Virus record (IMG/VR): IMGVR_UViG_2698536505_000003
DNA length: 5,062 bases
Reading direction: 5' to 3' (one strand)
Origin: a virus
Lineage: Duplodnaviria > Heunggongvirae > Uroviricota > Caudoviricetes
Shown one piece after another: positions 1 to 5,062 of this stretch. Both the position numbers and the translations under genes were made by a program. How positions within the stretch are numbered: position 1 is the first letter of the stretch; each line of letters starts with the position of its first letter. Below the pieces are notes generated by a model. That model saw only the letters and a program-made list of their open reading frames with translations, ran no database searches and had not been told where the DNA came from.

Positions 1-101
1 AAATATCTTTCCCCCTCCGGCGTGCTTACCACGAAGCCGCACGACTCCGCTGGCGCACATCGCCGGGCGTGCGCCAGAATCGCTGATTCTGTCTGTGTCA
101 T
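1..101 (-). CDS. K: Minor tail (tail-tip assembly) protein K, N-terminal 33 codons only; the gene continues beyond the left edge of the window
   Basis: Reverse complement from the ATG at 101..99 translates to MTQTESAILAHARRCAPAESCGFVVSTPEGERY, which I recognise as the N-terminus of lambda gpK. It lies 5 bp downstream of the L stop, in the lambda gene order H-M-L-K. Too short to appear in the ORF track. Confidence 0.8.
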   Translation of the reverse strand, partial: MTQTESAILAHARRCAPAESCGFVVSTPEGERY

Positions 102-106
102 GGGAT

Positions 107-805
107 TTACTGCGAAAGTTTGTTAATGGAAAGGAAGCCGCCAAAGTTGCCGACGTTATTGCGGAACTTACAACCGCTCAGGCATTTGCTGCATTTATCC
201 TTCGTGATATCGGACGTTGGCTGGTCATATTCATCCGCGACAGCCGGACCGCTATAACCGCACTCGTCACCGCGATAGGTCCAGGTGCAGGTGTTGGCCA
301 GCATGATACGTCCCGGAAAAACAGCGCCATCCGTTTCCGTCGGCGTGGACAGTACAAAGGAGGCACTCACCGCGCTCAGTTCGCTGCACTGCTCAATGCG
401 CCAGCGGCTGATCACCTCCTGCTCCGGATCGGCATAACTGTTTCCGTTGACGAAGTTCACCGCATCCAGAAAACGGGCGTAAACCTTACGCCGGACCACC
501 GTTCCGCCGACCAGACTCTGCATATCTTCCGCCATCCCGGTGACCATACCGTACAGGTTAGAAACCGTCAGCGTGGGGCGCGTACTGGTGCCTTTGCCAT
601 TCAGTTCAAAACCGCTCCCCTGAATGGGATACGGCTGATACTGTCGCCCCTGCCAGGTGACCGGCTCACCTTTTTCGTTCTGCTCATTACAGAAAAAATA
701 ACGTTCTCCACCGACCTCTGTCAGGTCGATTTCCCAGAGCACCACGCTGGCCGACTGCTCCGCACGGGTGCATTCATTCAGTGTTTCCTGCCGGATATCC
801 TGCAT
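107..805 (-). CDS. L: Minor tail protein L (tail-tip complex), intact, 232 aa
   Basis: ORF track 107..805 (-), 232 aa, MQDIRQETLNECTRAEQ...FLSINKLSQ, matching lambda gpL in length and sequence as I recall it. The start ATG shares one nucleotide with the M stop (TGATG on the minus strand). The C-terminal half carries the Cys cluster (C173, C182, C205, C208, C212). Confidence 0.9.
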   Translation of the reverse strand: MQDIRQETLNECTRAEQSASVVLWEIDLTEVGGERYFFCNEQNEKGEPVTWQGRQYQPYPIQGSGFELNGKGTSTRPTLTVSNLYGMVTGMAEDMQSLVGGTVVRRKVYARFLDAVNFVNGNSYADPEQEVISRWRIEQCSELSAVSASFVLSTPTETDGAVFPGRIMLANTCTWTYRGDECGYSGPAVADEYDQPTSDITKDKCSKCLSGCKFRNNVGNFGGFLSINKLSQ

Positions 806-1134
806 CAGTTCACCACCTGTTCAAACTCTGCGCTGAACTCAACACGCAGCATACTGACCCGCGACGACCATTTTGCGCAGGTCACCTTTATCTGCCGCCA
901 CTCATAAGGCGGCGTCCACAGAAAGGATTTCCAGCCCCCGTGCTCTTCCAGAAACGACTCCAGTACCGTGGCCTCCTCACGGGGGACAGAAAGCGTCACG
1001 CTGTACGTTTTCAGGTTGGCATTCAGCCCGGCAGGCGCTCGCTGAGAATAGCCATCACCAAAGCGCACCTTTCTTACAGAAGGGACCGAAGCCACATCCA
1101 TACCGGGTTTCACTTTCCAGCGGAAGGTCTTCAT
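805..1134 (-). CDS. M: Minor tail protein M, intact, 109 aa (copy proximal to the intact L)
   Basis: ORF track 805..1134 (-), MKTFRWKVKPGMDVASVPSV...EFSAEFEQVVN, matching lambda gpM in length and sequence as recalled. Its start overlaps the stop of the upstream H-derived frame (ATGA). Confidence 0.9.
   Translation of the reverse strand: MKTFRWKVKPGMDVASVPSVRKVRFGDGYSQRAPAGLNANLKTYSVTLSVPREEATVLESFLEEHGGWKSFLWTPPYEWRQIKVTCAKWSSRVSMLRVEFSAEFEQVVN
811..818 (-). promoter_or_regulatory. Shine-Dalgarno-like site for L (AGGTGGTG on the minus strand, 5 nt before the ATG)
   Basis: Reverse complement of 806..820 is ACAGGTGGTGAACTG followed by ATG at 805..803. The same motif recurs at 3314..3321 before the truncated L copy. 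Confidence 0.5.
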
Positions 1135-1808
1135 CGTCCACCTCCGGAGAACAGGCCACCATCACGCATCTGTGTCTGAATTTCATCACGGGCACCCTTG
1201 CGGGCCATGTCATACACCGCCTTCAGAGCAGCCGGACCTATCTGCCCGTTCGTGCCGTCGTTGTTAATCACCACATGGTTATTCTGCTCAAACGTCCCGG
1301 ACGCCTGCGACCGGCTGTCTGCCATGCTGCCCGGTGTACCGACATAACCGCCGGTGGCATAGCCGCGCATCAGCCGGTAAAGATTCCCCACGCCAATCCG
1401 GCTGGTTGCCTCCTTCGTGAAGACAAACTCACCACGGTGAACAATCCCCGCTGGCTCATATTTGCCGCCGGTTCCCGTAAATCCTCCGGTTGCAAAATGG
1501 AATTTCGCCGCAGCGGCCTGAATGGCTGTACCGCCTGACGCGGATGCTCCACCACTGGCAGCACCGCCAATGGCGCTGCCGATACTCCCGACAATCCCCA
1601 CCATTGCCTGCTTAAGCAGAATTTCTGTCATCATGGACAGCACGGAACGGGTGAAGCTGCGCCAGTTCTGCTCACTGCCGGTCAGCATCGCCGCCATATT
1701 TTGTGCAATACCATCAAAGGTCTGCGTGGCTGCACTTTTAACCTGCGACATACTGTCCGTGGCGCTCTCTTCCCACTCACTCCAGCCGGACTTCAGGCCT
1801 GCCATCCA
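1131..1808 (-). pseudogene. H: Orphan 3' fragment of tape-measure gene H (last 225 codons plus stop), duplicated copy without its own N-terminus
   Basis: The H frame WMAGLKSGWSEWEES...RDGGLFSGGGR* runs from the junction at 1809|1810 to the stop at 1131..1133. The ORF track extends it to 1862 only by reading out of frame across M-derived sequence (GTG start, MAADKGDLRKMVVAGQYV). Carries the variant Gly-rich patch GGAASGG. Confidence 0.75.
1141..1145 (-). promoter_or_regulatory. Shine-Dalgarno for M (GGAGG, 6-nt spacer), embedded in the 3' end of the H frame
   Basis: Reverse complement of 1131..1145 is GGAGGTGGACGATGA. Identical sites lie at 2102..2106 and 3644..3648 before the other M copies. 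Confidence 0.55.
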
Positions 1809-2095
1809 GACATACTGACCCGCGACGACCATTTTGCGCAGGTCACCTTTATCTGCCGCCACTCATAAGGCGGCGTCCACAGAAAGGATTTCCAGCCCCC
1901 GTGCTCTTCCAGAAACGACTCCAGTACCGTGGCCTCCTCACGGGGGACAGAAAGCGTCACGCTGTACGTTTTCAGGTTGGCATTCAGCCCGGCAGGCGCT
2001 CGCTGAGAATAGCCATCACCAAAGCGCACCTTTCTTACAGAAGGGACCGAAGCCACATCCATACCGGGTTTCACTTTCCAGCGGAAGGTCTTCAT
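1793..2095 (-). pseudogene. M: Duplicated M copy with replaced C-terminus: M residues 1-95 fused to SGWQA* (loses the last 14 aa of gpM)
   Basis: ORF track 1793..2095 (-), 100 aa. Identical to M through ...KWSSRVSM (codon 95 at 1811..1813), then crosses the junction at 1809|1810 into H-derived DNA out of frame. Confidence 0.8.
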
Positions 2096-2938
2096 CGTCC
2101 ACCTCCGGAGAACAGGCCACCATCACGCATCTGTGTCTGAATTTCATCACGGGCACCCTTGCGGGCCATGTCATACACCGCCTTCAGAGCAGCCGGACCT
2201 ATCTGCCCGTTCGTGCCGTCGTTGTTAATCACCACATGGTTATTCTGCTCAAACGTCCCGGACGCCTGCGACCGGCTGTCTGCCATGCTGCCCGGTGTAC
2301 CGACATAACCGCCGGTGGCATAGCCGCGCATCAGCCGGTAAAGATTCCCCACGCCAATCCGGCTGGTTGCCTCCTTCGTGAAGACAAACTCACCACGGTG
2401 AACAATCCCCGCTGGCTCATATTTGCCGCCGGTTCCCGTAAATCCTCCGGTTGCAAAATGGAATTTCGCCGCAGCGGCCTGAATGGCTGTACCGCCTGAC
2501 GCGGATGCGCCGCCACCAACAGCCCCGCCAATGGCGCTGCCGATACTCCCGACAATCCCCACCATTGCCTGCTTAAGCAGAATTTCTGTCATCATGGACA
2601 GCACGGAACGGGTGAAGCTGCGCCAGTTCTGCTCACTGCCGGTCAGCATCGCCGCCATATTTTGTGCAATACCATCAAAGGTCTGCGTGGCTGCACTTTT
2701 AACCTGCGACATACTGTCCGTGGCGCTCTCTTCCCACTCACTCCAGCCGGACTTCAGGCCTGCCATCCAGCTCCCGCGAAGCTGGTCTTCAGCCGCCCAG
2801 GTCTTTTTCTGCTCTGACATGACGTTATTCAGCGCCAGCGGATTATCGCCATACTGTTCCTTCAGGCGCTGTTCCGTGGCTTCCCGTTCTGCCTGCCGGT
2901 CAGTCAGCCCCCGGCTTTTCGCATCAATGGCGGCCCAT
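1810..2938. repeat. Inserted duplicate segment, 1129 bp, colinear with 3352..4480 (offset 1542); its first 961 bp are also copy 2 of the 961-bp unit
   Basis: Bounded by the two junctions (1809|1810 and 2936..2938). I found 3 mismatches to 3352..4480, at 2662, 2701 and 2771. Confidence 0.85.
2092..2937 (-). pseudogene. H: Orphan 3' fragment of tape-measure gene H (last 281 codons plus stop), second duplicated copy
   Basis: The H frame WAAIDAKSRGLTDRQ...GGLFSGGGR* runs from junction codon 2935..2937 to the stop at 2092..2094. The ORF track shows the part from internal Met 2820 (242 aa). No SD precedes that Met, and the upstream truncated-L frame terminates at 2904 in a different frame. Confidence 0.75.
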
Positions 2939-3308
2939 AACTGTTTCCGTTGACGAAGTTCACCGCATCCAGAAAACGGGCGTAAACCTTACGCCGGACC
3001 ACCGTTCCGCCGACCAGACTCTGCATATCTTCCGCCATCCCGGTGACCATACCGTACAGGTTAGAAACCGTCAGCGTGGGGCGCGTACTGGTGCCTTTGC
3101 CATTCAGTTCAAAACCGCTCCCCTGAATGGGATACGGCTGATACTGTCGCCCCTGCCAGGTGACCGGCTCACCTTTTTCGTTCTGCTCATTACAGAAAAA
3201 ATAACGTTCTCCACCGACCTCTGTCAGGTCGATTTCCCAGAGCACCACGCTGGCCGACTGCTCCGCACGGGTGCATTCATTCAGTGTTTCCTGCCGGATA
3301 TCCTGCAT
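2904..3308 (-). pseudogene. L: Truncated duplicate of L: residues 1-124 followed by 10 aa (GPPLMRKAGG) read out of frame from H-derived DNA
   Basis: ORF track 2904..3308 (-), 134 aa. Identical to intact L through ...NFVNGNSY, then diverges at the junction 2936..2938. Lacks the whole C-terminal Cys-rich half of gpL. Confidence 0.8.
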
Positions 3309-4480
3309 CAGTTCACCACCTGTTCAAACTCTGCGCTGAACTCAACACGCAACATACTGACCCGCGACGACCATTTTGCGCAGGTCACCTTTATCTGCCG
3401 CCACTCATAAGGCGGCGTCCACAGAAAGGATTTCCAGCCCCCGTGCTCTTCCAGAAACGACTCCAGTACCGTGGCCTCCTCACGGGGGACAGAAAGCGTC
3501 ACGCTGTACGTTTTCAGGTTGGCATTCAGCCCGGCAGGCGCTCGCTGAGAATAGCCATCACCAAAGCGCACCTTTCTTACAGAAGGGACCGAAGCCACAT
3601 CCATACCGGGTTTCACTTTCCAGCGGAAGGTCTTCATCGTCCACCTCCGGAGAACAGGCCACCATCACGCATCTGTGTCTGAATTTCATCACGGGCACCC
3701 TTGCGGGCCATGTCATACACCGCCTTCAGAGCAGCCGGACCTATCTGCCCGTTCGTGCCGTCGTTGTTAATCACCACATGGTTATTCTGCTCAAACGTCC
3801 CGGACGCCTGCGACCGGCTGTCTGCCATGCTGCCCGGTGTACCGACATAACCGCCGGTGGCATAGCCGCGCATCAGCCGGTAAAGATTCCCCACGCCAAT
3901 CCGGCTGGTTGCCTCCTTCGTGAAGACAAACTCACCACGGTGAACAATCCCCGCTGGCTCATATTTGCCGCCGGTTCCCGTAAATCCTCCGGTTGCAAAA
4001 TGGAATTTCGCCGCAGCGGCCTGAATGGCTGTACCGCCTGACGCGGATGCGCCGCCACCAACAGCCCCGCCAATGGCGCTGCCGATACTCCCGACAATCC
4101 CCACCATTGCCTGCTTAAGCAGAATTTCTGTCATCATGGACAGCACGGAACGGGTGAAGCTGCGCCAGTTCTGCTCACTGCCGGTCAGCATCGCCGCCAT
4201 ATTCTGTGCAATACCATCAAAGGTCTGCGTGGCTGCACTTTTTACCTGCGACATACTGTCCGTGGCGCTCTCTTCCCACTCACTCCAGCCGGACTTCAGG
4301 CCTGCCATCCAGTTCCCGCGAAGCTGGTCTTCAGCCGCCCAGGTCTTTTTCTGCTCTGACATGACGTTATTCAGCGCCAGCGGATTATCGCCATACTGTT
4401 CCTTCAGGCGCTGTTCCGTGGCTTCCCGTTCTGCCTGCCGGTCAGTCAGCCCCCGGCTTTTCGCATCAATGGCGGCCCAT
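2939..4480. repeat. Distal copy of a 1542-bp tandem duplication (3' half of L through the H 3' region); 2939..4312 is colinear with 436..1809 (offset 2503)
   Basis: The L, M and H translations are identical between the two blocks except at the variant positions. At least 9 mismatches found between 436..1809 and 2939..4312. Confidence 0.85.
3308..3637 (-). CDS. M: Minor tail protein M, intact, 109 aa (copy directly downstream of the full-length H)
   Basis: ORF track 3308..3637 (-), protein identical to the 805..1134 copy. One synonymous difference (3352 a vs 849 g). ATGA overlap with the H stop, and GGAGG at 3644..3648. Confidence 0.9.
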   Translation of the reverse strand: MKTFRWKVKPGMDVASVPSVRKVRFGDGYSQRAPAGLNANLKTYSVTLSVPREEATVLESFLEEHGGWKSFLWTPPYEWRQIKVTCAKWSSRVSMLRVEFSAEFEQVVN

Positions 4481-5062
4481 TTTGCCCGTTGCTGCTGTGC
4501 GAATTTATCCGCCTGCTGCGCCAGCGCGTTCAGGCGCTCCTGATACGTAACCTTGTCGCCAAGTGCAGCCAGCTGGCGTTTGTACTCCAGCGTCTCATCT
4601 TTATGCGCCAGCAGGGATTTCTCCTGTGCAGACAGCTGGCGACGTTGCGCCGCCTCCTCCAGTACCGCGAACTGACTCTCCGCCTTCCACAAATCCCGGC
4701 GCTGCTGGCTGATTTTCTCATTCGCTCCGGCATGCTTCTCCAGCGTCCGGAGTTCTGCCTGAAGCGTCAGCAGGGCAGCATGAGCACTGTCTTCCTGACG
4801 ATCGCCCGCAGACACCTTCACGCCGGACTGTTTCGGCTTTTTCAGCGTCGCTTCATAATCCTTTTTCGCCGCCGCCATCAGCGTGTTGTAATCCGCCTGC
4901 AGGATTTTCCCGTCTTTCAGTGCCTTGTTCAGTTCTTCCTGACGGGCGGTATATTTCTCCAGCGGCGTCTGCAGCCGTTCGTAAGCCTTCTGCGCCTCTT
5001 CGGTATATTTCAGCCGTGACGCTTCGGTATCGCTCTGCTGCTGCGCATTTTTGTCCTGTTGA
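3634..5062 (-). CDS. H: Tail tape-measure protein H, C-terminal 475 codons; the frame is open to the right edge, so the N-terminus lies outside the window
   Basis: ORF track 3634..4878 (414 aa from an internal Met). My hand translation of 4879..5061 continues the same frame without a stop (...RLQTPLEKYTARQEELNKALKDGKILQADYNTLMAAAKKDYEAT...). Q/A/E/K/R-rich coiled-coil-like region, then a Gly-rich segment and the C-terminus GGLFSGGGR, as in lambda gpH. Confidence 0.9.
   Translation of the reverse strand, partial: QQDKNAQQQSDTEASRLKYTEEAQKAYERLQTPLEKYTARQEELNKALKDGKILQADYNTLMAAAKKDYEATLKKPKQSGVKVSAGDRQEDSAHAALLTLQAELRTLEKHAGANEKISQQRRDLWKAESQFAVLEEAAQRRQLSAQEKSLLAHKDETLEYKRQLAALGDKVTYQERLNALAQQADKFAQQQRAKWAAIDAKSRGLTDRQAEREATEQRLKEQYGDNPLALNNVMSEQKKTWAAEDQLRGNWMAGLKSGWSEWEESATDSMSQVKSAATQTFDGIAQNMAAMLTGSEQNWRSFTRSVLSMMTEILLKQAMVGIVGSIGSAIGGAVGGGASASGGTAIQAAAAKFHFATGGFTGTGGKYEPAGIVHRGEFVFTKEATSRIGVGNLYRLMRGYATGGYVGTPGSMADSRSQASGTFEQNNHVVINNDGTNGQIGPAALKAVYDMARKGARDEIQTQMRDGGLFSGGGR

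Follow-up and report, generated by a model that had tools for sequence, protein, structure and literature searches.

A blunt H–M junction in a lambda-type tail region and its probable origin in the assembly of co-occurring prophage haplotypes

Introduction

Was the join between tail genes H and M at window position 1809/1810 (J1) made in a phage genome, or was it made when the sequence was assembled? The window is the whole stretch of DNA that was analysed (5062 nt). At J1 a copy of M runs into H-derived DNA and ends prematurely, and the original prediction, made from the window's letters, implied a physical recombination junction truncating M. In the lambda tail, H is the tape measure, M the distal tail protein and L the hub protein; in the solved structure all 109 residues of gpM are ordered, as a beta-sandwich that forms a hexameric ring between the tube and the tip (PMC10721106). 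The layout of the window, the position of each junction relative to natural variation and the occurrence of the junctions elsewhere were analysed, and the possible origins of J1 were then weighed.

Results

Layout of the window

The window was projected on lambda J02459 and corresponded to the reverse strand of lambda 14233..11675 at 99.7% identity. It contained tail genes L and M and the 3' part of H, all on the minus strand. Its order was not collinear with lambda and was resolved into three overlapping pieces, A, B and C (Table 1), which are joined at J1 and J2 so as to mimic tandem duplications nested one inside the other (unit lengths, 961 and 1542 nt). The arrangement is a head-to-tail direct repeat with novel end-to-start junctions, the layout of a tandem duplication. 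Plus-strand ORFs of the window gave no Pfam match, and no Rfam families were found in the window.

For comparison with natural sequences, two haplotypes were used, namely X, the prophage of E. coli Z1323HEC0108 (NZ_CP148374.1), and Y, the prophage of E. coli 2018-01-1CC (NZ_AP021892.1), which were chosen after the fact as the nearest public neighbours of pieces A and C, respectively. X had 2 differences from piece A and Y had 2 differences from piece C; lambda had 9 (A) and 5 (C). X and Y differed from each other at 16/2561 positions (lambda 11674 to 14234).

Table 1. Pieces, junctions, genes and ORFs of the window.
Feature	Window	Strand	Lambda	Description
Window start	1		14233	adjoins polymorphic site 14234 (C/T)
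Piece A	1-1809		14233-12425	L, M, last 226 codons of H
Gene L	107..805	-	13429-14127	piece A; tail tip/hub protein, intact, 232 aa; Pfam PF05100, profile 1-206 of 206
Gene M	805..1134	-		piece A; distal tail protein, intact, 109 aa; Pfam PF05939, profile 1-108 of 108
H 3' fragment	1131..1809	-	12425-13103	piece A; third base of codon 628 to stop
M' ORF	1793..2095	-		100 aa; M-derived DNA 1810-2095; Pfam PF05939, profile 1-95 of 108
J1	1809..1810	.	12425 / 13385	lambda 12425 abutted to lambda 13385
Piece B	1810-2938		13385-12257	M from codon 96 backwards, last 282 codons of H
Second H 3' fragment	2092..2938	-	12257-13103	piece B; X/Y mosaic
L' ORF	2904..3308	-		gpL residues 1-124 followed by GPPLMRKAGG and stop; Pfam PF05100, profile 1-99 of 206
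J2	2936..2938	.	12259/12257 and 13800/13798	H abutted to L; ambiguous cat overlap
Piece C	2936-5062		13801-11675	L codons 1-124, M, H from codon 379
Gene M	3308..3637	-		piece C; intact; X allele at 3352
Gene H	3634..5062	-	11675 to stop	piece C; from third base of codon 378; runs off window end
Window end	5062		11675	one base from polymorphic site 11674 (C/G)

The intact gpM was 100% identical to PDB 8IYK chain M, and gene M of piece A carried the Y/lambda allele at lambda 13385 (849 G). A single-sequence AlphaFold model of gpM, aimed at the role of residues 96-109, reached a pLDDT of 39, and the solved structure was used instead. For H, Pfam PF09718 was matched on ORF 1131-1862, and the Tape_meas_lam_C domain was present in all three copies. 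In the H fragment of piece A, X alleles were present at 1701 and 1740, and the 6-base patch at 1548-1563 was likewise of the X type. The fragment of piece B carried the Y patch, X alleles at 2662, 2701 and 2771 and a Y allele at 2937; its ORF 2092-2820 (242 aa) begins at an internal in-frame Met of H.

Junction J1 and the M' ORF

Each statement of the original prediction about the sequence at J1 was confirmed. The nine bases gccatccag at 1801-1809 had been assigned to H, and the interval 1564-1809 was 100% identical to 2525-2770 (246 bases left of the join) and identical to 4067-4312 except at 1701 and 1740. The DNA from 1810 onward had been assigned to M; 1810-2938 was aligned with 3352-4480 over 1129 nt with three mismatches (2662, 2701 and 2771), all distant from J1, with 852 identical bases right of the join. 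Because hundreds of identical bases flank it, the junction is not a chance resemblance. Base 1810 is A, as at 3352 and not as at 849 (G, the lambda reference allele). The join is also blunt, as had been proposed: 1809 is g against a in M (3351 and 848), and 1810 is a against t (4313) or c (2771) in H. A placement with cag microhomology was considered and rejected; it requires the G allele of M and an additional a, and the blunt reading with the A allele is simpler. The sequence spanning J1 is ...GCCATCCAGACATACTG..., and the break falls between base 3 of H codon 628 and base 1 of M codon 96.

On the minus strand, the M' ORF consists of gpM residues 1-95 followed by SGWQA and a stop, in agreement with the predicted fusion, with the tail read out of frame from H-derived DNA. 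Read across J1 it is ...SRVSM-SGWQA-stop; the ORF ends ...KWSSRVSMSGWQA and lacks LRVEFSAEFEQVVN. It does not contain a complete beta-sandwich domain, as its profile match stops at position 95 and those of the intact M copies extend to 108. The exact M' fusion product was found in no gene on record.

Both flanks of J1 were found to be naturally variable. Lambda 13385 is a common natural polymorphism, and the a at 1810 is its X-haplotype allele; lambda 12424, the H base expected next after 1809, is a natural polymorphism as well. The left piece thus stops one base before polymorphic 12424 and the right piece begins on polymorphic 13385. Site 12424, adjoining the H side of J1, differs between the window's own copies (2771 C, 4313 T) and is a common non-synonymous polymorphism of gpH, N628S (40 G versus 38 A among 78 haplotypes plus lambda). 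Of the original prediction, the geometry (an H 3' region bluntly joined to M codon 96, giving M(1-95)::SGWQA) and the agreement of 1810 with the distal M copy were retained; the implied physical recombination junction truncating M was not, because the breakpoints sit on natural polymorphisms.

Junction J2 and the L' ORF

The middle base of the J2 overlap corresponds to lambda 12258 in one parent and to 13800 in the other, and both of these sites are polymorphic. When the junction is read as 2936/2937, the left piece stops just before polymorphic 12258 and the right piece begins on polymorphic 13800. The exact L' fusion product, like that of M', was found in no gene on record. A MutH-type break at GATC was considered for the junctions and rejected: such a site lies 3 nt from the L side of J2, and the other three breakpoint ends have no GATC.

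Segment boundaries and polymorphic sites

All six segment boundaries fall on X/Y differences, at lambda 14234 (C/T), 12424 (A/G) with 13385 (C/T), 12258 (C/T) with 13800 (C/T/A), and 11674 (C/G), so that the block boundaries coincide with haplotype differences as the branch points of a graph misjoin do. With 16 such sites in 2561 positions, the chance of this coincidence is ~6e-14 for the six boundaries and 1.5e-9 for the four internal ends. The after-the-fact choice of X and Y cannot explain the X/Y differences at 14234, at 11674 or at the J2 sites. When differences among the window's own copies were used instead, independently of X and Y, both flanks of J1 again fell on such sites (p = 4e-5). 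Among 78 natural haplotypes, 5 of the 6 boundary sites reached a minor allele frequency of 5% or more, as do 4.2% of all positions. The remaining site is also polymorphic, at a lower frequency, and the bases beside the boundary sites are invariant or nearly so; the chance of this pattern is ~1e-7.

The boundaries are also asymmetric. In window orientation, left pieces end before a variable base and right pieces start on one, and the window itself is bordered at each end by a variable base that lies immediately outside it. The left-before, right-on pattern is the look of trimmed assembly-graph edges. A start at lambda 14233 fits a contig end at a graph fork, and a graph-based assembly most likely produced the window as one complete contig. 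As a control, 19 contigs of real draft assemblies that end in this region were inspected, and 4/19 had a common polymorphic site as the first outside base where ~0.8 would be expected (p=0.0075). Assemblers therefore do break in this region at such sites.

Allele mosaic of the three pieces

Every base of the window (5062/5062) was accounted for by X or Y, leaving zero private bases. Relative to lambda, 14 positions of the window are variant, and the allele at each of them also occurs naturally, in prophages of E. coli or in lambdoid phages. Copies A, B and C differ from one another solely at sites where X and Y differ; that is, they carry alternative alleles, as the copies of a false duplication do. 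In window order and by X/Y sites, piece A is Y, Y, X-patch, X, X; piece B is X, Y-patch, X, X, X, Y; and piece C is Y, X, Y-patch, Y, Y, Y, Y, X, Y. The allele combination of piece B was not found among the 68 natural haplotypes covering all eight typed sites. It links rare 12533A to the wild-type patch and to rare 12258T, and in nature 12533A occurs only with the X patch. Unphased switching between bubbles of an assembly graph is expected to produce such linkage of rare alleles, never linked in these 68 haplotypes.

The 16-nt patch at 1548-1563 (compared with 2509-2524 and 4051-4066) has six substitutions and is confined to piece A. It changes a Gly/Ala-rich stretch of gpH from GGAVGGGASASGG to GGAASGGASASGG. 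The six substitutions are not new mutations, because the Z1323HEC0108 prophage and phage ev099 share the patch as a natural allele. Two other sources of the variant bases were considered, namely point mutations from break-induced replication near the breakpoints and sequencing errors, polishing errors or bisulfite-type changes. Both were rejected, because the bases in question are also present in the parental copies and are all natural alleles.

The H-M-L region was found in a median of 2-3 places per carrying E. coli genome (maximum 14), so co-resident haplotypes are normal. In E. coli ET220 (NZ_CP100981.1), two H-M-L copies lie ~46 kb apart (at ~3142605 and 3188662). These two places best match different window pieces (A and C), and near-identical lambdoid haplotypes are thus present in one genome.

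Searches for the junctions

Neither J1 nor J2 was found in 5426 complete E. coli genomes or in 50,697 phage records, and J1 was not found in 72,556 plasmid records. Searches of IMG/VR, JGI metagenomes and GTDB species genomes returned no exact 39-40-mer across either junction.

The 242-aa H fragment of piece B was on record only where draft contigs break inside H or where H is split. Many draft E. coli assemblies break inside H, with contig ends at lambda 12343-12423 (L011-L013, L054 and L086). The draft breaks fall just upstream of the internal in-frame Met, and for this reason the 242-aa C-terminal fragment of gpH is listed as a gene product in 55 gene-position index blocks. In two NCBI drafts (L008 8177-10001 and L009 8169-10729), H is represented by products of 596 aa and 242 aa or by an uncalled gap, which suggests frameshifts or assembly problems in the same gene. 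The lambda region was further encountered in MW057783.1 ("Campylobacter phage CJLB-4"), which matched the whole window at 99.7%, and in NZ_CP082339.1 and NZ_CP104294.1 ("plasmids" of ~48.5 kb from Salmonella enterica and Stenotrophomonas maltophilia), which matched a short query spanning J1. These three records are probably lambda DNA carried over into those projects.

Discussion

Taken together, these observations indicate, with a probability of roughly 85%, that J1 is an assembly artefact, a false haplotype duplication arising from mixed, near-identical lambda-type prophages or phages. Breakpoints that lie only on differences between co-assembled haplotypes point to a product of the assembly graph and not to illegitimate recombination. 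A de Bruijn graph assembler writes out a path by taking the first edge in full and appending every subsequent edge with its k-base overlap removed. Each edge terminates at the k-mer that precedes the next variable base. An edge trimmed of its k-base overlap therefore has the variable base as its first letter, and a contig that starts from the first shared k-mer past a bubble has its first letter directly after the variable base.

On this basis, the sample would have contained at least two near-identical lambda-type haplotypes, one X-like and one Y-like, and each X/Y difference would have formed a bubble in the graph. Such bubbles would be expected at lambda 14234, 13800, 13385, 12671-12686, 12533/12494, 12424, 12258, 12014, 11722 and 11674. 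The contig would be a walk along the chain of bubbles, legitimate in its first part, that twice left at a fork and re-entered upstream at an allele-specific edge of another bubble, exiting before lambda 12424 to enter at 13385 (X edge) and exiting before 12258 to enter at 13800 (Y edge). Two non-adjacent edges would each time have been concatenated as if adjacent, a step suggested by what is known of de Bruijn graph assemblers. The same 1-1.5 kb would thereby have been written three times, with the alternative alleles between 13385 and 12424 used in turn. M::SGWQA, the truncated L and the H-fragment ORFs are probably by-products of such a walk that do not exist in the DNA. Two points count against an artefact. 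In a strict de Bruijn graph no junction can arise unless k-mers span it, so that a further error, in scaffolding, gap closing or path writing, must be assumed. There are also zero Ns at J1 and J2, whereas gaps often lie between the copies of a false duplication on a scaffold (PMC9516828).

The window can also be read as a real nested tandem duplication, in which illegitimate recombination or template switching first repeated a 1542-nt unit (lambda 12257-13798, J2, 3-nt microhomology) and then a 961-nt unit (lambda 12425-13385, J1, blunt) inside the first copy. Two nested head-to-tail duplications would give exactly this layout, and the phage could stay viable, since H and L would each remain in one intact copy and M in two. 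Phage lambda and E. coli are known to undergo spontaneous tandem duplication at junctions where homology is short or absent. We nevertheless regard this origin as unlikely. Fresh copies should be identical, whereas these differ only by pre-existing natural alleles of two haplotypes, and, with no private mutations, they do not have the form of copies drawn from a single parent. A duplication also offers no reason for four breakpoint ends to lie on X/Y differences (1.5e-9), and neither junction occurs in any public genome searched. The addition of 2503 nt to the 48.5-kb lambda genome would further give ~51 kb, which is roughly the upper packaging limit. A variant in which the nested duplication is real, with breakage provoked at heteroduplex mismatches between co-resident lambdoid prophages and followed by homology-independent end joining, would tie the breakpoints to the haplotype differences; we consider it highly improbable.

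An in-vitro chimera, produced by library ligation, by template switching during amplification or by a chimeric long read carried into the contig, is likewise highly improbable. Blunt, homology-free joins are typical of ligation chimeras, and the structure is private to the window sequence, but chimeric breakpoints should be random with respect to polymorphic sites and would leave the boundary coincidence unexplained. Such an origin would also need two chimeric joins of like orientation in a single 5-kb contig, neither of them removed at consensus, which is unlikely. The least credible origin is a laboratory lambda derivative with an engineered or selected duplication in the tail region. The 99.7% identity of the window to lambda is what such a derivative would show, but where the window departs from lambda it carries alleles of wild E. 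coli prophages and not of laboratory lambda. Only 2 differences separate each of pieces A and C from those prophages, against 9 (A) and 5 (C) from lambda, and J1 was in no phage or vector record searched.

If the contig were taken at face value, the record of lambdoid tail modules would gain several false entries: the M::SGWQA truncation, a truncated L, two fragments of the tape measure and a complex duplication. As an assembly artefact, J1 is most likely of low biological interest. The lesson is that rearrangements in multi-prophage E. coli can be judged, from sequence alone, by whether their breakpoints and contig ends lie on differences between co-occurring haplotypes. Were J1 and J2 real, mismatch-directed breakpoints would be an unusual recombination signature, and the heteroduplex variant above would amount to a mismatch-directed route to illegitimate recombination in E. 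coli. M' would then lack the last 14 residues of the beta-sandwich, and L' would lack its C-terminal half, including the iron-binding domain that this half of gpL contains (PMC10721106). Two C-terminal H fragments might be made, one from the ATG at 2820-2818 and one from the in-frame ATG at 1806-1804, which precedes the stop codon of M' by 9 nt. M', L' and the H fragments would be non-functional or interfering by-products beside the intact H, M and L, and neither M' nor L' is expected to be functional even in that case.

Comparison with known systems

The intact copies of H, M and L in the window are lambda-type tail genes, with Pfam PF05939, PF05100 and PF09718 all matched. Compared with lambda gpM, M' is without profile positions 96-108 of the beta-sandwich domain; compared with lambda gpL, L' is without the C-terminal half. 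The window resembles spontaneous tandem duplications of lambda and E. coli in its head-to-tail repeat, its novel junctions and their 0-3 nt of homology. Unlike those duplications, its copies were not identical at birth, its breakpoints are tied to haplotype differences, and it is known here from its sequence only.

The preferred reading, an assembly artefact, belongs to a documented class of error in which an assembly places alleles next to each other so that they pass for paralogues (Ko et al. 2022, PMC9516828). As in the false heterotype duplications described there (PMC9516828), the copies in the window carry alternative alleles, spurious and truncated genes are created, and exposure needs read depth and spanning reads. 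The window differs from them in that the sources would be near-identical co-resident or co-sampled prophages and not diploid alleles, and in that its copies are abutted without gap Ns and are themselves X/Y mosaics. Finally, like the contig breaks that de Bruijn assembly of E. coli produces at repeat and strain forks, the ends of the window lie beside common polymorphic sites, as do those of the real drafts in this region; unlike ordinary assemblers, which stop at forks, the path written in the window continues into a non-adjacent edge.
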